A stretch of 64,000 bases of DNA from Escherichia coli (GTDB lineage: Bacteria; Pseudomonadota; Gammaproteobacteria; Enterobacterales; Enterobacteriaceae), in the NCBI RefSeq assembly GCF_050920415.1, contig NZ_CP169309.1; one strand, 5' to 3'. The position numbers and the translations under genes were made by a program. The number at the start of each line of letters is the position of its first letter. Position 1 is the first letter of the stretch. The notes below the pieces were generated by a model that saw nothing but the letters and a program-made list of their open reading frames with translations, made no database searches and was not told where the DNA came from. Positions 15,699-51,770 of this stretch are shown here, piece by piece.

Positions 15699-17309
15699 TC
15701 AATGTTTCACAATATACATAGTCCGGCTATACGCCACATCTTCCGGGTTATTAATGGGATAACCTTTCAGCCACGGCTTGATTAATCGTCCATTGGTATA
15801 TTGATAAATTGGTGCAATCGGTGCTTGCTCCATGAGGATTTTTTCTGCCGCATTGTAATCGGCATTACGCGCTTTAACGGTATTTTCCGTCGATGCCTGG
15901 GCCAAAACTTTGTCGTAGGCCGGGTTGTTAAAGCGTGAAATGTTGCCTGAATGCGTTGACGTTAATAATGTCAGGAAGGTGGAGGGTTCATTATAATCCC
16001 CCACCCACGAGGCGCGGATAACATCAAAATTACCTGTATTACGACTATCGATATAGGTTTTCCATTCCTGATTTTGCAGTTTGACATCTACACCAAGGTT
16101 CTTTTTCCACATCGATGCCACAGCAATCGCAATTTTTTGATGGTTTTCTGAAGTATTATACAAAAGCGTCAGCTTCAGCGGTTTTTGCGGACCATAACCG
16201 GCTGCGCTCAACAAAGTTTTTGCCTGCGCATTCAGTTCTTCCTGACTCATTTGTTCAAACGGCGAAGGCTCCGGCGTGAATCCGGCAGTAACATCTGGCG
16301 TAAAATGCCACGCTGGTTTTTCGCCCGTCCCCAACACTTTTTCGGTCATCAGGCGGCGATCTATCGTCATACTTAATGCCAGACGAACGCGCTGATCTGC
16401 CGTCGGCCCTTTTTGCGTGTTAAACGCATAATAATAGGTTCCGAGCTGCGGCGGTGTATAAACCTGCCCCGGAATATCCTTCAACAGCTTCTGATACATA
16501 TTTTTGGGGAAGGATTCGGTGATATCAATATCCCCCGCGAGATAACGCTTAGTGGCTGCGGATTCCTGATTAATTGGCAGGAAGGTCACTTTTTGCAACA
16601 CCGTTTTGGCGTTATCCCAATAATGGGTATTTGGCACCACGACCAGTTTTTCATTGACTACACGCTCTTTAAGAACATAAGCGCCATTGCCGACCAGATT
16701 TCCGGGTTTCGTCCACTCTTTCCCGCTTTCTACGTTAGCTTTTTGCACCGGGAAGAAGGCAAAATTGGCTGTTAAATTCACAAACCACGGCAACGGTTTA
16801 TCAAGCTGGATTTTCAAAGTACGGGCATCAACCGCGGTGACGCCTAGCTGATCAGGCGTAGCTTTACCATCAATAATCGCCTGTGCGTTGTTGATTCCCG
16901 CCAGCGCGGCAAACCAGGCAAACGGCGACAACGTTTTTGGGTCAACCAGACGTTGCCAGCTGTAGACAAAATCCTGTGCCGTTACCGGTGTGCCATCCGC
17001 CCATTTTGCGTTATCGCGCAGGGTGAAAGTCCAGATACGGTTGTCATTACTTTTCCACTGAGTCGCAACGCCGGGGACAATCTCCCCTTTCTCGTTCTGA
17101 TTCACCAGTCCTTCAAAAAGATCGCGAATGACCTGAATCTCTGGCAGACCCACGGCTTTAGCGGGATCCAGCGACGCAGGCTCATCTTTAATATGGCGCA
17201 CCAGCTCCTGCTTCTCTGCCAGTACTGTGCCGCTCGGAACTTCTGCAGCATACGAAAGAGACATTATGCAAAGTGGCAAAAACGATATATAAATCATGAT
17301 TTTATTCAT
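15699..17309 (-). CDS. mppA: murein tripeptide-binding periplasmic protein MppA (OppA paralogue) with replaced N-terminal signal peptide
   Basis: family-5 SBP sequence; mature part from SLSYAAEVPSG matches MppA; N-terminus MNKIMIYISFLPLCIM differs from the K-12 sequence as I recall it; start at 17309 chosen within longer track ORF. Confidence 0.78.
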   Translation of the reverse strand: MNKIMIYISFLPLCIMSLSYAAEVPSGTVLAEKQELVRHIKDEPASLDPAKAVGLPEIQVIRDLFEGLVNQNEKGEIVPGVATQWKSNDNRIWTFTLRDNAKWADGTPVTAQDFVYSWQRLVDPKTLSPFAWFAALAGINNAQAIIDGKATPDQLGVTAVDARTLKIQLDKPLPWFVNLTANFAFFPVQKANVESGKEWTKPGNLVGNGAYVLKERVVNEKLVVVPNTHYWDNAKTVLQKVTFLPINQESAATKRYLAGDIDITESFPKNMYQKLLKDIPGQVYTPPQLGTYYYAFNTQKGPTADQRVRLALSMTIDRRLMTEKVLGTGEKPAWHFTPDVTAGFTPEPSPFEQMSQEELNAQAKTLLSAAGYGPQKPLKLTLLYNTSENHQKIAIAVASMWKKNLGVDVKLQNQEWKTYIDSRNTGNFDVIRASWVGDYNEPSTFLTLLTSTHSGNISRFNNPAYDKVLAQASTENTVKARNADYNAAEKILMEQAPIAPIYQYTNGRLIKPWLKGYPINNPEDVAYSRTMYIVKH

Positions 17310-17351
17310 ATATTTTTTAACCTTAAAATAATATGGTACACACAATGGTAC

Positions 17352-17381
17352 ACAAAAAGAAACGAGGCGTTAGCCTCGTTT
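17352..17381 (-). terminator. rho-independent terminator after tail fiber gene
   Basis: hairpin aacgaggc-gtta-gcctcgtt followed on minus strand by TCTTTTTGTG. Confidence 0.55.
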
Positions 17382-17409
17382 CGCGGCGATGTTCTTCGCA
17401 CATCACCTC

Positions 17410-19782
17410 TTATTCTTCGCTTCCGGTCAACTGCTTAACAAGCGCAACCAGTTCGCTAACCTGATTTTCAAGATTGGTGATACGTTCATCCATGACAGTA
17501 ATGTTAGCACGTAAGCTGGCGTTTTCTTCTTCCAGTGCTGTAGCTTTCAACATTAAGGATTGTGTAACGTGCATTGTATCGAGCAATAAAGGCGTAGTAT
17601 CAAGCTCTTTCACCTCTATTTCTTTGTTGTTATTATCATAATGTGTTCTTGTTTTTACATATAACGGATCTATTAGTTCGGCTGATTGTGAAATAATGCC
17701 ACGCCGCACTCTTTCTTTTTCATCACCATTGAATACGAATGTTACGAAATCAAGGTTTTCTAAATTGCTCCACGCTTTATCTACGGTAGCGTGCTGCACA
17801 TTATGCTTAAATCTAATATCAGATATTGCATTTTTAGTAACCGTTGAGGTTTCTGTTACGGAATAATTATCCCATTTGGTAAAGTAAATGTTTGAATCAA
17901 ACGGGGCAATTTCAAGTCTTACTCCGTATTTGTTATCACTATCACCAACGCAGTTTAATGAAGTCCTAGCAAAACTAGTGGTATTGTGATGAATTAAACC
18001 GAGACTATACCAAGTCGCATACCCCGCTGAGGATGCTTGCCCTGCACTAAAATTGGAATTAAACGACCAGTTTTCACCTATATTAGTGTAAGGTACAACG
18101 AATGTTGCGCCGTGCGTTGGGATCTCACCCCAACTTAAAAGTTTTTGCGTTGTAGCCCTAAATGATGCTGATTCAAAAAGCCCGCTATCATTTACCGTAA
18201 TTCTCCCCTTGTTCCCTGATGTTTTATTTTCAACTTCAATAACTGCATAGTGGGATTGATCGATATACGCATCACCCCACATCGACACTTCGCATTCTGA
18301 GGCGTCACCGATCTTGTATACGGATTTTACAACACCTGTAGTTGATTTTGTTCCGGTTGATAGCCTTGTTTTGTCGGCGTTAATTACGCTCCAGGATGTA
18401 TTTGCAGCGGTAAAGCCACCAGATGCACGGATCACCCATACACCAACAAAGTTTCGTGTAAGAATTTCATCTGTTGATGCTCCATAAATCGGGCTACACC
18501 GTGACGCATCAAAAGTACATGTATTATAACGGCCTTCCAAAGCGGTTGTACCGCTAGGAATTGCATCACCTACACCGTCAGGAAATACACTGTTATCGGA
18601 GGAAAATGCACCATAAGATGTGCCAATGGCTTGCGCGTAACTCCCACCGGAATAAGTGGTAAAATAACCAGTAATATTTGGCGCGGCTGATTCAAATAGT
18701 TGTCCGTTTGCACTACTAACGCCACCATCACCTCGACCATAAAGCGCTCTGATCGATCCTTCTTGTATACCGTTTTTATCGGGAACGCGGAAAGTTGTTT
18801 CTCCGTCACCCGTGGAATATTTACCGCGTTGGAATTTATCAGCCAGCCATTCAGAATCATCTATAGCGCCCACCATTTGAGCGTAAGCCCACAATTCAGG
18901 CCAATCTGCACGGTTAAGTAATTGCCCGTCCGATGTAACCTCATAAGGCTGAATATAAGCGCGGCTATCGCGTAAGTGGAAATCCCCTACGCCGTAATTC
19001 ATAACACCGTTCATTGTTGGTCCGACTGTACCACTATTGATATAGTTCATTACCCAACGCATTGTTACAGCGTCGTAATCACTTACCGGATCGCCTGCTA
19101 ATGGCGTTGAACCTATTGGGCGAACGTTCAACCAGGCCGCCGCTCGGTCGGCAAGATCGGAAAGGTTATTTTGTATTCTTAGAAATGAATCCGGGTTTAT
19201 GTCGTTTTTGTACCCTTCCGCTATGTTTTTATATTCTTCGGCGTTAGCGGCGCTTTCTGCTGCGTTTACTGCCGCCCCTGTTGCGGTAACAGCCCCTTCT
19301 TCTGCTGTTTGTGCTGCTGCTTCTGCTGCTGCTTTAGATGATTCGGCGTCTGTTTTGTATTGCTGAGTTGTCGCTTTATCTGCGCTTACTTGCGCTGAGT
19401 CCGTGTGAACTTGGTTAACTAGTGCTATCAATCCATCAAGATCAAATTCCTGAAAAAATTCAACTGCGTTTGCAATTTCGGTTTCCTTGCCCTGATAGTA
19501 ACGCAGAGTTTCAGCAACATCTTGCGCTAAACCATCTACAGAAATCGAGTCTGAAAGCAGAATACTGAATTTTGTCCCGGCAGATATTGCAGGGTCGGCC
19601 GCAGGAGTTACTGATAATTCAGTTCCGCTCTTAATTTCGGTGATGGTAAATATCTGCACAGGATCGCTAACTGCAATCAGCGTGCACCCTTCCCGGATGA
19701 GCGAAAGCGGCGCGGTGAAGCTTGTCCCCAAGCCTGTAACAGTGTTACCACTAATAGCTATTGTTCCTGTTGTATAAATCAT
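17410..19782 (-). CDS. phage tail fiber protein with C-terminal intramolecular chaperone (peptidase S74-like) domain
   Basis: 790 aa; Ala/Glu-rich coiled region; C-terminal SDIRFKHN motif typical of self-cleaving chaperone domains; terminal coiled coil; GGAG RBS. Confidence 0.72.
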   Translation of the reverse strand: MIYTTGTIAISGNTVTGLGTSFTAPLSLIREGCTLIAVSDPVQIFTITEIKSGTELSVTPAADPAISAGTKFSILLSDSISVDGLAQDVAETLRYYQGKETEIANAVEFFQEFDLDGLIALVNQVHTDSAQVSADKATTQQYKTDAESSKAAAEAAAQTAEEGAVTATGAAVNAAESAANAEEYKNIAEGYKNDINPDSFLRIQNNLSDLADRAAAWLNVRPIGSTPLAGDPVSDYDAVTMRWVMNYINSGTVGPTMNGVMNYGVGDFHLRDSRAYIQPYEVTSDGQLLNRADWPELWAYAQMVGAIDDSEWLADKFQRGKYSTGDGETTFRVPDKNGIQEGSIRALYGRGDGGVSSANGQLFESAAPNITGYFTTYSGGSYAQAIGTSYGAFSSDNSVFPDGVGDAIPSGTTALEGRYNTCTFDASRCSPIYGASTDEILTRNFVGVWVIRASGGFTAANTSWSVINADKTRLSTGTKSTTGVVKSVYKIGDASECEVSMWGDAYIDQSHYAVIEVENKTSGNKGRITVNDSGLFESASFRATTQKLLSWGEIPTHGATFVVPYTNIGENWSFNSNFSAGQASSAGYATWYSLGLIHHNTTSFARTSLNCVGDSDNKYGVRLEIAPFDSNIYFTKWDNYSVTETSTVTKNAISDIRFKHNVQHATVDKAWSNLENLDFVTFVFNGDEKERVRRGIISQSAELIDPLYVKTRTHYDNNNKEIEVKELDTTPLLLDTMHVTQSLMLKATALEEENASLRANITVMDERITNLENQVSELVALVKQLTGSEE

Positions 19783-19941
19783 CTCAACAACTCCATAATG
19801 TTAACTTATGTGTCAATTCTACCATTTTGCGATCTGTGTTACATTTCTGTCTTATACAAAATGTATTTGTTGATTTACATCAATGTTGTGAAAATGCGGT
19901 TTGTGGATACTACAACCAACGAAACAACGGAGGGTAAGACA

Positions 19942-20181
19942 ATGAAAGGCTTAAAAAATATCGCTATCGCTGCAATGGTTGCTGGTCTGGTTGGTTGTGC
20001 TGATATGCCGAAACGTGAATGCACGGCAATTTATCAAACTGGCGGTAATGAGTATGCGGTTGCAGTCTTCGGTGTCGCGGATGTTGGTGGTCACAAAATG
20101 GCTAAGGCTGGGTATCCATTTAATTTTCAATGGGTGAGCGTTGACCACTTCAAGAAAACGGATTGCCCGGAATTGAATTAA
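19942..20181 (+). CDS. small lipoprotein (moron, opposite strand to tail genes)
   Basis: 79 aa; GGAGGG RBS; signal peptide with lipobox LVGC; own upstream promoter-like element. Confidence 0.5.
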   Translation: MKGLKNIAIAAMVAGLVGCADMPKRECTAIYQTGGNEYAVAVFGVADVGGHKMAKAGYPFNFQWVSVDHFKKTDCPELN

Positions 20182-20771
20182 TCATAGGCGTCGGTTTTAA
20201 TGGCGGTGATAGCGTTCCCGTGGTTAATATAGCCAGTTGGTGCATATACGCTACCCGCCTGGATGCCGTAAATTCTAGTTGTGCTTCCGTTGTAATAAGC
20301 CGCCGCATAAATGGATGCACTACCCTGTCCAACGAGCGCCCCTAACAATTGGGGGCAAATAGCATAAGAACCGGATAACGTTTGGTCTATATAAATTCCG
20401 CCGCTTGATCCTGCCGTCCCAACGGTTACAAGGTCTGTTAATATTCTTGATTCATTAGTTAGCACTAGTTCCCCGGAAGCGTTCCAAATAGCCATTCCCC
20501 ACTTCGGCAGCGATGGCGGGAAAATAGTGAAAATATACGCATACCCCGAACCAGCCCCGATTAGTAAAGTTGATGGGCTATTTCTATAAGCTAATACAGC
20601 GGCGGCGGTAGTGCTTTTTACAAATACCATCACGGGCTTCCCGGATGGCACGGCGACGGTTTGATTCGATGATGTTAATGTCACCCGTTCATATAAGCAA
20701 AGCGGCGTTGCTTCCGGTGTAACGAAAATATTCCCGTTACTTAATCTCAAATAAGCTCCGAAGGTTGCCAT
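20178..20771 (-). CDS. hypothetical phage tail-associated protein (MATFG paralogue, 197 aa)
   Basis: start overlaps stop of upstream paralogue (TAATG); shares N-terminal MATFG with 20771..21082; Gly/Ser/Thr/Ala-rich. Confidence 0.4.
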   Translation of the reverse strand: MATFGAYLRLSNGNIFVTPEATPLCLYERVTLTSSNQTVAVPSGKPVMVFVKSTTAAAVLAYRNSPSTLLIGAGSGYAYIFTIFPPSLPKWGMAIWNASGELVLTNESRILTDLVTVGTAGSSGGIYIDQTLSGSYAICPQLLGALVGQGSASIYAAAYYNGSTTRIYGIQAGSVYAPTGYINHGNAITAIKTDAYD

Positions 20772-21082
20772 TAAGCCACCTCCGCAAATATAACAATTTC
20801 ACACTGTGACGCGGGCCATATATTAGCGCCTACCGTATCCCCTGCCGAGGAAATGGAAACAGTACCACCCGAAATAGTGATCTTTCTGCGCGTCGTTGAC
20901 GTTGTGCCATAATCAAGCGTCATCCCATAAGATAATTTGCATCCGGTCGGCACTGTAAAGGTATATGTGCCGGATACCTGCCCGGATGATAAGGAAATAT
21001 AACCAACCACAACGGAAGGTTTAATTCCATAGTTATTAGCATTGCCGCTGGCGTCCCAGGTCGCTACGCCGAAAGTAGCCAT
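20771..21082 (-). CDS. hypothetical phage tail-associated protein (MATFG paralogue, 103 aa)
   Basis: AAGGAGG RBS; directly downstream of J. Confidence 0.4.
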   Translation of the reverse strand: MATFGVATWDASGNANNYGIKPSVVVGYISLSSGQVSGTYTFTVPTGCKLSYGMTLDYGTTSTTRRKITISGGTVSISSAGDTVGANIWPASQCEIVIFAEVA

Positions 21083-21134
21083 AATTACACCTCCTTAATA
21101 AAAAACTGAGGCCGAACAAGTCGGCCCCTTAATT

Positions 21135-24100
21135 CTACCATGATCCGGTAATTCGCCCAATCTGGACGCGCAAAACCCCGTTACCGTCTTTTACCGAAAT
21201 AGTGGTATTAGTTAATTTCATCGCGCCCTCACCACTCACCGCGCCGTAGTTTTCGAATGTCCCGCCTTTATCCAGTTTCCATCCGGTACTGCCGGAAACA
21301 TAGTTATTTGACTGGATGTAAGAACCTATTTTCGCGTTGGTGATTGAGGCGTCTTTTATAAATGCTTCGCGAACATACATAGCGCCGTTTTCAACATAAA
21401 ATGGTGTCGTATATGTGCCGTTGGCGGCTGTCATTAATACGAAGCGGTCAACAAGAAAAATACATTGTGATTGCGTATTTGCGCCATCACCAGTTACCCC
21501 AAGCGATATTCCTGACGCGTATTTCATACCGTTGTTATCAGTAGCGATCTTGAGACTCCAAGTTGCCGACATATCACCATTAATATTGGTAATTGCTGTT
21601 TTGTTTTCCTCAATAAGCACTGATTGCCCATTAATTGATGCGGTTACTTCGCTAATTTGCTGCGCGGTTGCTTTTTCAAGCGTAACCATTGCTTGTTCAA
21701 GGTTTGTGACCTTCCCTTGAATATCATCACTTATTTTTGCTTCAAGCTCTGATAATGCTTTTGCTGTTGCCTCTTTTTCCGTTGCGACAACTTCATCTAT
21801 ACGCGTGATCTCTGCTTTTGATTGTTTCAACTGAGCGGAAAGTGTGCGTCTTGATGTTGTTTGAGCTACGGAATTATTAAGAAGCGCAATGGAAACGTTT
21901 TGCAAGCGGGCGCGAGTTTGTGTTAGTTCGCTATCCTGTTCCGAAAGCTCGACACCTATTTCGTCAATACGACTTTCATGAACCCCTAACCCCTCTTCGT
22001 TATTCTGGACGCGATTAATTAGATCTGATGTGGTATCCTTCAGATCGGTAACATCCCCTTTAAGTGTGCTCGTGTCACTAATCAACCCTTGAAATTGCTC
22101 GCTTTCCATGACTTCTTTCGTCACGAAATCTGTAATTTCGTCGAAGTCCTCCGTAGGCTTCCCGGATGCCTCAATAAAATCTGACACACCGAACGCGTTG
22201 CGGGTGCGAATGTACACATAATACATGTGGCCTGTGCTCATGCCGCCGAACGTCCATTGATAACCACGTCCGGTATACTGCGCTGACGTGGTTATGGTTG
22301 CCGGATCCGTAATCCTGTTTTCTCCGGCGTAATAAAATTCATATGCCGTATCAGTGGTGAGTGTTGTTTTGCTTATCGGGTAGACAGTAGCCTGAAATAC
22401 ACCAGGCACCCAATTTACACCGACAGGCGCGGATGGCGCTCCAATCACCAGATCGACGATGCTTTCTGCACCCTTCATGCCAGTGTCATTTCTGCCGCGA
22501 ACACCTAACGTGTATGAACCAGCATCAATGCCATAAAAATCATAACTGTATTTCGTGGTTTCATAGCTTTTAACCACCGCACCATCTGCATTGTATATGC
22601 GGATCTCGAATGTCATGCGATGAGTGGTAGTCTGTGTCTCCCACGTTGCGCGGCATTGAACTGTTTCCGATCCAATGTTTACTACCTTCAGATTTTCGAT
22701 GTTCGGCACACGGAAGTGATTAAGCGTGTCGCTGTTGATTTCGAAGATTGCGCCTTCATCGACTACGGCTTGTTTGTTAGGGTCGTGCTGCGCGGCTTCG
22801 ATAGTGTATACGCTGTTATTTTGTGTTTCTGCTACGCTGGTGATCCTACACAAAACTGGTTTTGCTGCGTTAGTTGATACAGCAAAAACAGTGCCATTTC
22901 GAATCCATGTTGGGGCCGCAGCAAGGGTGATATTGTTTCCGTTAACTCCGGTGATCTGGTGTTTTTTAAATTTGCCATCGCTATCAAGAAGGCTTATTGT
23001 GTCGCCAGCGGTCACATATTCAGAATCAACCTTATCTACAGTGATCACACGTCCATTGTTAGAGACAATACGACCGCCTAAGCGAGCGCCAGCACGGTTA
23101 TTGTCGAGTATCTCGATGATATCACCTGGCGTAAAGTGAATCGCGTCACGGGCCATTTTAAACGTGAATTTTGAAGGCTCGCGCTTCGCTGTTTCTATCA
23201 GCCATTTACCCGCCCGGTGCGCTTGCCCGCGTGATGTACACCCGAAAGCCTCCAGCGTGGTTTCGTTGTAGCCGTCACGGGCGATTAGTTCATCATCTGC
23301 GACATACTCTTTTGATTGTTCCCAGCCGTTTTCCGGATCAGTCCATGACACAATTACCGCGTTGTAGCATTCTGATCGCGCGATACTTGAACGGGTAAAT
23401 GCACCATCCACGACGTTTGCGTTAGTGATGGTTGCGATTGGGTCTTGTGGTGCATCAATCATTATAGTAAGGCGCTGACCATCCCATAACGCTATACCAC
23501 GGAACATCCCGGCGATGTTGTCCAGTAGGTCGCGGGCGCTCATTTGCTCTGTGATGTACGCGTTTAGCGTGACGCGCGGCTCTAAGCCACCATAGCCATC
23601 ATCAACCAACTGATCGCAGTATTGAGAGAGCGTATACAAAGCACCATCATCAACATCGATATAACCAGCCTGTCGAGCAAGGCCAAAACGCTCGTTTTTA
23701 ACCAAGTAGCGGAATATCCACGCCGGGTTATTTGTGTATGCCTTTTTAAGTCCGCCAAGCCATAAACCGGAATAATTTCGTTTTTCCGGGTCGTAGTTAT
23801 CCGGTACATCGACAATCAGCCCACGCAGATGATAAGTGCGTGTAGGTGTATCGGAGTACTGGTCATGGTCAATTACCGCGCCAGCTACAGCAGTGTGAGG
23901 ATAAGACAAGTTATCGTCGATGATTTCGCTATAACTGTTCCAGCGGGTATCGTTCTGTAATAGGTCGCTTACACTATCAGCCGTCACGCGGCGCACGCGA
24001 ATATCAAATGGCTTTTCATCCGGCGCATCAATGATATGAGACTCCAGATATTCACCGCTAATCTTACCCGGACCGATTTGTACGGCCTTAACCGCCGACC

Positions 24101-24554
24101 AGGTGGAAGACGAGGACGGTTTAACATCGATTGCCATAATGACAGACGTTTCTTTCTGGTTTGATTGGTTATCGCTTTCCACCAGTGAATCCACGCCAAT
24201 ATTTAGCCGGACGCGCGTCACGTTCGGATCTGATACCGTCCTGACCAGTGGCGTATCATGCTTTACCTGTGCGTTAACCATCACCGTTGATTCAATGGCG
24301 TTAAAGCCGTTGATCGGTGACTGGTCGGCAGTACCCGGACGCCAGGCGACACTAACGCCTGGAATGCTGGTATTACCTACCGCATCCGTAACAGGAGTGT
24401 CATTAAGCATTACGCAGTTTAACGGCGCGGCAGTATTGACAGGCCCATAAATCGGCCCTTCGCTCAATATATCAAGCACGCGATAAAACTGCTTATGGAA
24501 CAAGTTATCGTTTATTAATGTTGGTGTTTTTGCTTTACCACCGCCGCCGCCCAT
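21135..24554 (-). CDS. tail tip / host specificity protein J
   Basis: 1139 aa; lambda gpJ-like length, position and sequence character. Confidence 0.9.
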   Translation of the reverse strand: MGGGGGKAKTPTLINDNLFHKQFYRVLDILSEGPIYGPVNTAAPLNCVMLNDTPVTDAVGNTSIPGVSVAWRPGTADQSPINGFNAIESTVMVNAQVKHDTPLVRTVSDPNVTRVRLNIGVDSLVESDNQSNQKETSVIMAIDVKPSSSSTWSAVKAVQIGPGKISGEYLESHIIDAPDEKPFDIRVRRVTADSVSDLLQNDTRWNSYSEIIDDNLSYPHTAVAGAVIDHDQYSDTPTRTYHLRGLIVDVPDNYDPEKRNYSGLWLGGLKKAYTNNPAWIFRYLVKNERFGLARQAGYIDVDDGALYTLSQYCDQLVDDGYGGLEPRVTLNAYITEQMSARDLLDNIAGMFRGIALWDGQRLTIMIDAPQDPIATITNANVVDGAFTRSSIARSECYNAVIVSWTDPENGWEQSKEYVADDELIARDGYNETTLEAFGCTSRGQAHRAGKWLIETAKREPSKFTFKMARDAIHFTPGDIIEILDNNRAGARLGGRIVSNNGRVITVDKVDSEYVTAGDTISLLDSDGKFKKHQITGVNGNNITLAAAPTWIRNGTVFAVSTNAAKPVLCRITSVAETQNNSVYTIEAAQHDPNKQAVVDEGAIFEINSDTLNHFRVPNIENLKVVNIGSETVQCRATWETQTTTHRMTFEIRIYNADGAVVKSYETTKYSYDFYGIDAGSYTLGVRGRNDTGMKGAESIVDLVIGAPSAPVGVNWVPGVFQATVYPISKTTLTTDTAYEFYYAGENRITDPATITTSAQYTGRGYQWTFGGMSTGHMYYVYIRTRNAFGVSDFIEASGKPTEDFDEITDFVTKEVMESEQFQGLISDTSTLKGDVTDLKDTTSDLINRVQNNEEGLGVHESRIDEIGVELSEQDSELTQTRARLQNVSIALLNNSVAQTTSRRTLSAQLKQSKAEITRIDEVVATEKEATAKALSELEAKISDDIQGKVTNLEQAMVTLEKATAQQISEVTASINGQSVLIEENKTAITNINGDMSATWSLKIATDNNGMKYASGISLGVTGDGANTQSQCIFLVDRFVLMTAANGTYTTPFYVENGAMYVREAFIKDASITNAKIGSYIQSNNYVSGSTGWKLDKGGTFENYGAVSGEGAMKLTNTTISVKDGNGVLRVQIGRITGSW

Positions 24555-51048: not shown

Positions 51049-51770
51049 TATTCACCCCGTGTTACTCGTTTAATCTCACTTTCCGCGCGGGCCTCTTCTT
51101 TGAATAGCTCAGCTATGGCGTCTTCATAGAAAACCCGGTATTTTTTCCACCATGTTGATCGGCTTACCGGAAAGACAAGCTGGTTAACCGCCTGCCGGAC
51201 AAGATCTACCGGGAAACGCGAGTACCCGCGCCCGCCGCAGTGTTGGCACGTTTTGAATACTGGCATTTCCGCCGCTTCGCTGGCTGCTTTATCCGGTATC
51301 TCGCCGCGACCTTTGCATTGTTTACAATGATTGCGAACCTTTCCATGCCCCTTGCATTTTTTGCAAAGGTGTTTTTCTCCGTAGTCGTCAAACGTAAATT
51401 TATATCCGCCGCACTCCATACAAGTTTTTTCCGTCGCGGCGCTTTGGCAATAATCCCGAAACGCGAAAACGGCAACAAGAATAATAAGATCATTGCGTTG
51501 TTCTTCATTTAATTCCATCACGTATTCGTAATCTTTCGCCATAGCTCTTAAACGCTCTGTAAGTAATACTACGGCCCTGTGTTTTTCGGCTTGCGATAGT
51601 TCCATCTTCCCTAAAAAAGCGCTATATCCAAGCTCTACGCGCGATTGCGCCATACCAGCGGCGGTAAGCGCATCCGTCGTATTAAGTGCATCAGGTGATG
51701 TTCCCCGGCTTTCGTCTGATAATCGCGGTGATTTTGGGAAGTGGAATTTAAGAATGGATTCTAAATTCAT
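51048..51770 (-). CDS. putative late antiterminator Q-like protein with four CxxCxGxG zinc-finger repeats
   Basis: 240 aa; position directly after RusA/NinG as for Q in lambdoid phages; repeats CMECGGYK, CKKCKGHG, CKQCKGRG, CQHCGGRG. Confidence 0.5.
   Translation of the reverse strand: MNLESILKFHFPKSPRLSDESRGTSPDALNTTDALTAAGMAQSRVELGYSAFLGKMELSQAEKHRAVVLLTERLRAMAKDYEYVMELNEEQRNDLIILVAVFAFRDYCQSAATEKTCMECGGYKFTFDDYGEKHLCKKCKGHGKVRNHCKQCKGRGEIPDKAASEAAEMPVFKTCQHCGGRGYSRFPVDLVRQAVNQLVFPVSRSTWWKKYRVFYEDAIAELFKEEARAESEIKRVTRGE

Follow-up and report, generated by a model that had tools for sequence, protein, structure and literature searches.

Two small genes of a lambdoid prophage in Escherichia coli, here termed A and B, probably encode virion proteins that are expressed late and complete the central tail fibre at its distal tip, in a locus of the FhuA type. 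We analysed them in a 64,000-nucleotide stretch of E. coli DNA (the window), where they directly follow a J-like central tail fibre gene. The functional unit that we consider here is larger than A and B and also comprises the last 48 codons of J and the convergent gene cor. Such cassettes are already published and have been recognised since 2006 and 2021; the copy in the window is new, and the functions that we propose for A and B draw on homology, synteny and modelling. The earlier note on this DNA had guessed that the two products may be tail-tip accessory or receptor-binding components, and this is now the best-supported reading, based on co-inheritance with the J tip, the match between locus and receptor in the BASEL collection, the flanking Cor and the FhuA dependence of other carriers.

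Architecture of the locus

The features of the locus are as follows, in coordinates of the window.

19942..20181, plus strand: cor, encoding a 79-aa superinfection-exclusion lipoprotein (MKGLKNIAIAAMVAGLVG|C), convergent with B
20178..20771, minus strand: ORF B, 197 aa, start MATFGAYLRL; PHROG 425 (T1 orf31, HK022 gp25)
20771..21082, minus strand: ORF A, 103 aa, start MATFGVATWD; PHROG 557 (T1 orf32, HK022 gp24)
21090..21096, minus strand: Shine-Dalgarno sequence of A, AAGGAGG, strong, 7 nt 5' of A's ATG, read from the sequence
21108..21128, minus strand: terminator-like hairpin in the J-A interval, GGGGCCGACTTGTTCGGCCTC followed by a T-run
21135..21281, minus strand: cassette tip of J, the last 48 codons and the stop codon of the J-like central tail fibre gene
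21135..24554, minus strand: J-like ORF, 1139 aa, with five Pfam J/tail-tip domains

The prophage is integrated at mppA, and its flank, uspE-ynaJ-ynaI-mppA, matches strain N96 at 100% identity. Its gene content includes a Q-like antiterminator, terminase, capsid protein, tape measure and L/K/I-like proteins, followed by J, A, B and cor, after which a 790-aa side tail fibre is encoded. The J-like ORF contains the FNIII-A_GpJ, Phage-tail_3, Ig_J, Ig_J_second and Phage_Tail_Tip domains. The two genes that the earlier note had placed after J at 20178-21082 have exactly these coordinates, and all three genes lie on the minus strand. A gap of 52 nt separates J from A, and B directly follows A on the same strand. 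The stop codon of A (TAA, 20773..20771) and the start codon of B (ATG, 20771..20769) share one base within the sequence TAATG at 20773..20769, and the stop codons of cor and B overlap in the palindrome TTAA (20178..20181). Terminators are annotated at the same place after J in the T1 and HK75 records, and the hairpin in the window may attenuate expression of A and B relative to J.

A and B are real genes. Their dN/dS values against IMG/VR relatives (L004-L007) are 0.03-0.15 and 0.07-0.14, respectively. Short ORFs that overlap them (20150..20332 on the minus strand and 20163..20345 on the plus strand) were rejected as mechanical, the A and B frames being under strong purifying selection. Both proteins indeed begin with MATFG and, at 103 and 197 aa, are rich in Gly, Ser, Thr and Ala (48% in A and 43% in B), as had been noticed from the sequence. 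Because three synonymous differences separate the five MATFG codons of A from those of B (ATGGCTACTTTCGGC versus ATGGCAACCTTCGGA), the common start is a feature of the proteins and not a DNA repeat. Family-wide, the N-terminus of A and B follows M-A-x-[FYW]-G, and the exact MATFG/MATFG pair occurs only in the window's clade (the window and L004-L008).

Distribution and conservation of the gene pair

The profile HMM search that the earlier note had suggested assigned A to phrog_557 (E 1e-28, residues 3-101) and B to phrog_425 (E 5.5e-50, full length). Among phage records, tblastn matches to A were found in 343 and to B in 349, with the pair in approximately 345; the carriers include T1, Hanrivervirus, Warwickvirus, Dhillonvirus, HK022/HK97-like Hendrixvirinae and Klebsiella weberviruses. 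In alignment, A is 41% identical to T1 orf32 and 52% identical to HK75 gp21. For B, tblastn identities are 42% to T1, 48% to HK022, 52.8% to JLBYU41, approximately 70% to SLUR29 and 69.5% to PeterMerian/Bas05. The B family is small and restricted to phages, as only 76 clusters matched it in a HMMER scan of 1.84 billion cluster representatives. The multi-stretch matches P0100 and P0102 were spurious, these being low-complexity or cadherin-repeat proteins.

We examined gene order in 83 loci, comprising three reference phages and 80 IMG/VR contigs. A is directly upstream of B in 80 of these loci, the two genes overlap by 1 nt in 72 of the 80, and the overlap reads TAATG in 64 of the 80. The overlap and coupling that had been described for the window are thus borne out as a conserved property of the family. 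The order J, A, B, cor is also found in T1 (orf32, orf31, cor), SLUR29 and HK75 (gp21, gp22, Cor).

The window's version of the cassette is rare at the DNA level, with matches of 79-87% identity in three of 5426 complete E. coli genomes. Its B is a short variant of 197 aa, compared with 212-229 aa in relatives, that is otherwise found in virulent Warwickvirus phages at approximately 70% identity. It lacks a loop of about 13 residues that most relatives possess, so its receptor contacts could differ.

The tip of J as part of the cassette

The last 48 residues of J in the window are 67-79% identical to those of T1, HK75, SLUR29 and Dhillonvirus carriers, whereas the preceding 250 residues are 27-37% identical. 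Among all six carriers compared (the window, T1, HK75, SLUR29 and the Dhillonvirus loci L052 and L012), the corresponding ranges are 60-79% for the tip and 24-37% for the preceding 250 residues. The reverse pattern was observed between Dhillonvirus L052 and Oekolampad, an LptD-dependent phage that has neither A nor B: here, the body of J is 94-95% identical and the last 48 residues only 29%. Between the window and Oekolampad, the last 48 residues are 27% identical. This pattern of identities places a recombination boundary approximately 48 codons before the end of J.

At the level of sequence comparison, the pattern argues that A and B are physically coupled to the tip of J, which is the probable docking site for both proteins. 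A 2026 preprint described the C-terminal tip of GpJ as associated with specificity (10.64898/2026.04.02.716166), and our comparison of J tips independently reproduces that statement. What it adds to the literature is the position of the cassette boundary, which can be set roughly 48 codons short of the J terminus.

Predicted structures of A and B

Neither A nor B contains a signal peptide, a lipobox or a hydrophobic or transmembrane segment. Their maximum 19-residue Kyte-Doolittle means are 1.01 and 1.15, respectively, and the first eight residues of each lack a basic n-region. Scans of both proteins against Pfam and NCBIfam returned no family and no membrane-family match, and a PDB-wide phmmer search returned nothing at E <= 1. 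The earlier note had named homology to a well-characterised non-structural family as the finding that would speak against a tail role; these Pfam, NCBIfam and PDB sequence searches revealed no homology of this kind.

The AlphaFold2 model of B, calculated from a 56-sequence alignment, has a pLDDT of 90 and a pTM of 0.85 and shows an all-beta protein with two domains. Only its highly conserved N-terminal segment of approximately 20 residues is of low confidence. B is probably a receptor-binding protein (RBP) composed of two beta domains. A carries an invariant N-terminal motif (G5, W9, D10, G13, N16, N17, Y18, G19 and P22). We also modelled A and B as a fusion, A-(GS)30-B, from a paired 26-sequence alignment (pLDDT 64.7, pTM 0.65). 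In this model, A shows seven beta strands, suggesting that within the tail-tip module it is a small accessory protein with an all-beta (Ig-like) fold. The fused model lends no support to a direct contact between A and B and does not exclude one either. Both N-termini are disordered in it, which is compatible with the need for a third partner, namely the J trimer.

A Foldseek search with the B model found nothing significant in the PDB. Against BFVD, it matched 17 uncharacterised phage proteins of 200-270 aa with TM scores of 0.40-0.61, from phages of Proteus, Pectobacterium, Xanthomonas, Pseudomonas and Acinetobacter, and the B fold may therefore be widespread. The name of one match had suggested that the repeated motif described below might be of the bulb-lectin (beta-prism) kind; this was discarded, there being no Pfam B_lectin match.

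Relationship between A and B

The earlier note had called A and B paralogues. BLASTP aligned only 14 residues, the N-terminus of A with residues 88-101 of B (E 0.024). At the level of domains, the claim has moderate support: hhalign gave 88% probability (E 2.9e-6) for an alignment of residues 1-79 of A to residues 1-73 of B. The same program aligned the first 14 residues of A with B 88-101 at 82%, and the N-terminal with the C-terminal half of B more weakly, at 63%. In the models, the core strands of A (24-31, 38-41, 48-55, 65-71 and 74-81) and the strands of the B N-domain (25-32, 37-40, 47-53, 61-65, 68-71 and 76-82) are alike in order and spacing. The segment [FYW]-G-x-x-x-[WL]-[DN]-x-x-G occurs in three copies across the two proteins. 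Paralogy of A and B is thus plausible at the level of domains only.

A bolder combination of these observations is conceivable, and we regard it as doubtful. A, the B N-domain and the B C-domain would all descend from one ancestral beta-sandwich, each opening with the segment [FYW]-G-x-x-x-[WL]-[DN]-x-x-G. These three related domains, carried by two polypeptides in a ratio fixed by coupling, would assemble into a pseudo-trimeric cap. Seated on the three C-terminal strands of the J trimer, the cap would turn threefold symmetry into one asymmetric receptor-binding face. FhuA-type and LptD-type RBPs, which are currently called unrelated, would then share both fold and origin.

Cor and the predicted receptor

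The product of cor matches the NCBIfam equivalog NF047972 ("phage exclusion lipoprotein Cor") at 53.9 bits, against a cut-off of 31, and phrog_1119 at E 1.2e-22. It has a clear lipoprotein signal with the lipobox LVG|C. In the 83 loci, cor adjoins B in 71. It is missing from 12, and in most of those B is immediately followed by a tail-fibre gene; the link of cor with A and B is therefore not obligatory. T1-like phages and the relatives of the window have cor convergent with B, and HK022-like phages have it in the same direction. Cor is a known FhuA-directed exclusion lipoprotein according to the literature cited in PMC13164509.

All characterised carriers of B homologues use FhuA. The closest of them, the FhuA-dependent PeterMerian/Bas05, has the same short variant, with a B that is 69.5% identical to that of the window. 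FhuA-dependent carriers further include LeonhardEuler, PaulFeyerabend and KarlBarth (BASEL Table S5), JLBYU41, JLBYU37 and JLBYU60 (PMC10373560), T1, and HK022, which is cited as FhuA-dependent (PMC13164509). Because all characterised carriers of B use FhuA and Cor is directed at FhuA, we would assign FhuA as the receptor of this prophage with moderate confidence.

Wietzorrek et al. described the locus in 2006, as cited in PMC13164509, and the BASEL study proposed the locus after gpJ as a "bona fide RBP locus", the alleles of which match the terminal receptor without exception (PMC8594841). The three-gene cassette occurs only in FhuA-using BASEL phages, in 10 of the 10 small siphoviruses that carry it (PMC13164509), and a 2026 preprint described a FhuA-specific RBP family with accessory proteins (10.64898/2026.04.02.716166). 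Matusiak et al. modelled a hand-like protein that caps the J trimer together with three Ig-like proteins; in AF2-Multimer predictions for the JLBYU60 homologues, one B-like monomer sits on the C-terminal trimer of J with three A-like copies (PMC12309495). The C-terminus of J is unresolved in the T1 cryo-EM map (PMC11945409). Our literature search found no virion proteomics, no structural data and no FhuA- or J-binding experiment for the A/B family. The papers on Sfin-1, which has a different type of locus, and on mEpimmI, which belongs to another phage group, are uninformative for A and B.

Alternative interpretations

The names given to the two PHROG families, "outer membrane protein" for 557 and "membrane associated protein", in the moron category, for 425, would place A and B in the membrane or outer membrane, as partners of Cor in excluding superinfecting phages. 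The 2026 KanT1 paper, which reported no structural matches, suggested an exclusion-related membrane role for the KanT1 and T1 homologues, assuming a Sie function from the association with cor and from predicted membrane localisation (PMC13164509), and the adjacency of cor in 71 of the 83 loci fits such a role. We nevertheless consider it highly improbable. Since signal peptides and membrane segments are absent from both proteins, the membrane names are unsupported, and the missing lipobox stands against the clear lipoprotein signal of Cor. Published estimates of membrane affinity for homologues are also far below that of Lom (PMC12309495). Moreover, A and B run in the same direction as J and are translationally coupled to each other, whereas cor is often convergent and hence separately transcribed, and 12 loci keep A and B without it. 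Co-variation of A and B with the J tip and the possible resemblance of the modelled B fold to a proven RBP also speak for the tail tip.

Small genes that follow fibre genes are often chaperones. A, B or both might accordingly assist the assembly of the J tip, or of the side tail fibre encoded downstream, as chaperones that act in morphogenesis and stay out of the particle, and the lack of a confident complex in the fused A-B model would fit this, as would the structural or chaperone-like role mentioned by Matusiak et al. (PMC12309495). However, the side-fibre genes of T1 and SLUR29 are located elsewhere, yet A and B remain next to J; the side fibre of the window has its own intramolecular S74 chaperone; the allele at the locus tracks the receptor and not the type of fibre (PMC8594841); and the modelled fold of B may be that of a receptor-bound RBP. 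Chaperones therefore appear rather unlikely. A and B could also form a receptor-binding tip in which the short B recognises an outer-membrane protein other than FhuA. In favour of this, the 197-aa B is without the loops of its 212-229-aa relatives, other RBPs can change their porin specificity through single substitutions (bioRxiv 10.64898/2026.04.02.716166), and Cor-like proteins also accompany BtuB-binding phages (PMC13164509). We judge it improbable given that PeterMerian/Bas05 is FhuA-dependent with the same short variant (B 69.5% identical) and that Cor scores above the NF047972 cut-off.

Proposed mechanism

We propose that A and B act as virion proteins at the tip of the central tail fibre, encoded by a horizontally exchanged four-part cassette in which they would be joined by the last ~48 residues of J and usually by cor. 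Transcription would continue through the terminator-like hairpin after J. A would be translated from its strong Shine-Dalgarno sequence and B by coupling at TAATG, giving a fixed A:B ratio. The two-domain, all-beta B would sit non-covalently on the trimeric J tip as the terminal receptor-binding protein, and A, as a single beta-sandwich domain related to the B N-domain, would serve as an adaptor or accessory protein at the same tip. The conserved N-termini of A and B, of about 20 residues and disordered in isolation, are likely docking segments. The receptor bound by B would most likely be FhuA, the outer-membrane ferrichrome transporter. From the convergent cor, expressed separately, the lipoprotein would be produced that blocks FhuA against superinfecting FhuA-dependent phages.

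The cassette thus predicts that FhuA is the terminal receptor of the prophage, and cor predicts that the lysogen is resistant to T1-, phi80- and T5-like phages. More broadly, temperate lambdoid prophages and virulent Drexlerviridae have this exchangeable tip cassette in common, which matters for the prediction and engineering of host range.

Comparison with known systems

The locus corresponds most closely to the FhuA-type locus downstream of gpJ in T1 and HK022, with which it shares gene order, PHROG families 557 and 425, the 1-nt overlap, the J tip and the adjacent Cor. The same type is found in Dhillonvirus JLBYU60 (YP_010740311 and YP_010740312) and in the BASEL phages Bas05, Bas13 and Bas15-17; N15, phi80 and ES18 are counted with it from the literature only. 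The window's copy differs from these loci in its location in a lambdoid prophage at mppA, its short B and its rarity in E. coli.

Oekolampad (Bas18) encodes an RBP (bas18_0025) and an SE lipoprotein (bas18_0026), and the structure is available as PDB 9RPT (bioRxiv 10.1101/2025.07.07.663478). The RBP gene occupies the same genomic position as B, and the tail-proximal part of the protein is also poorly ordered (10.1101/2025.07.07.663478). Unlike B, this RBP binds LptD. It is encoded on the opposite strand by one gene (321 aa) that lacks an A-like partner. There is no sequence or profile similarity and no Foldseek match between the two: hhalign of the A and B profiles was not significant against either the single Oekolampad RBP sequence or a 45-sequence profile of its family, the B profile giving a probability below 5% (P ~0.01) against the latter. 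The J tips differ as well (29% in the L052 comparison). On the basis of the model, B may nevertheless share its fold with this LptD-binding RBP of solved structure. This would be a second addition to the literature, that the FhuA-type "membrane associated protein" may have the fold of an LptD binder, the 2026 paper having had no structural match (PMC13164509); together with the cassette boundary in J, it leaves the overall picture unchanged.

The proposed logic is also similar to that of pb5 and Llp of T5. In papers that cite PMC9586334, pb5 is described as a dedicated monomeric RBP bound non-covalently to the tip of the central fibre, with FhuA as receptor, and Llp as a lipoprotein that acts from the periplasmic side to block FhuA, which resembles the logic of Cor. 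The T5 proteins differ from A and B in having no sequence relationship to them (phmmer), another genomic location and no A-like partner.

A and B lie where lambda has lom/stf, after J and before the side tail fibre, and the task of terminal receptor recognition is common to both systems. The receptor-binding domain of lambda lies inside J, and Lom is an exported beta-barrel. In the window, by contrast, the end of J is a short conserved tip, and recognition apparently resides on separate proteins that carry no export signal.

Organisation of the B/cor junction

The gene for the probable receptor-binding protein B lies on the minus strand and is convergent with cor, the plus-strand gene for the superinfection-exclusion lipoprotein. 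The two are separated by zero intergenic nucleotides, and their stop codons share the palindrome TTAA at 20178–20181; the same 4-nt stop overlap is present in the relatives L004–L008. Called mechanically, the cor ORF has its start at 19798 and encodes 127 aa. Within this longer frame, it is only from the ATG at 19942 (MKGLKN...) onwards that the sequence matches the Cor family and carries the lipoprotein signal. The AT-rich 160 nt 5′ of the gene may be where a promoter of its own is located, although a consensus scan identified no promoter on the plus strand.

The LptD-type module of phage Oekolampad (L084, 6655–7844) is composed of a single gene for a 321-aa receptor-binding protein and an exclusion lipoprotein gene. 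Both genes run antiparallel to J, and the module lacks a gene resembling that of the 103-aa protein A. The Oekolampad receptor-binding protein is approximately as long as the window's A and B summed (300 aa).

Variation in B and a possible J–B fusion

The B proteins of the window clade are short, with 197–199 aa in the window and L004–L006 and 196 aa in the reference phage SLUR29, compared with 212–229 aa in most relatives. Alignment A1 of the B proteins shows that they lack a loop of ~13 residues found in most relatives (columns ~201–220, corresponding to B residues ~150–155), and that some loops of the N-domain are also shorter. The B proteins of L007 and L008 (210 aa) have only the ~13-residue deletion in common with this clade. 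Loops that vary in this way are candidate sites of contact with the receptor.

A 337-aa metagenomic protein, P0070, combines a J-like FN3 fragment with a C-terminal domain of the B type (FFSIFPQTKPDYGLAVWDASGTLILTNETRTL...). Either the assembly has produced a chimera, or J and B are naturally fused in this protein; the latter, if true, would favour a location of B at the tip of J.

Side tail fibre, regulatory region and host junction

The features considered here are:

17410–19782, minus strand, side tail fibre (790 aa) with C-terminal Peptidase_S74 and coiled-coil tail
51051–51770, minus strand, Q-like antiterminator
61092–61736, minus strand, cI-like repressor
62300–63397, plus strand, O-like replication initiator

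The side tail fibre, in which the Peptidase_S74 intramolecular chaperone domain spans residues 654–706, is a host-recognition element separate from A/B, and its target is probably a glycan.

The genes for the cI-like repressor and the O-like replication initiator flank a divergent region. Because all prophage late genes lie on the minus strand, as does the Q-like antiterminator gene, the plus-strand replication gene points away from the late operon, an arrangement that differs from that of lambda.

The side tail fibre gene ends at 17410, and the prophage–host junction falls within the 5′ end of mppA (17262–17410). Sequence comparison with E. coli N96 showed identity until ~17262 and divergence beyond. 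Since this point is reached ~50 nt before the mppA start codon of N96, the prophage seems to supply mppA with a substitute end coding for the N-terminal signal peptide, together with a substitute upstream region.
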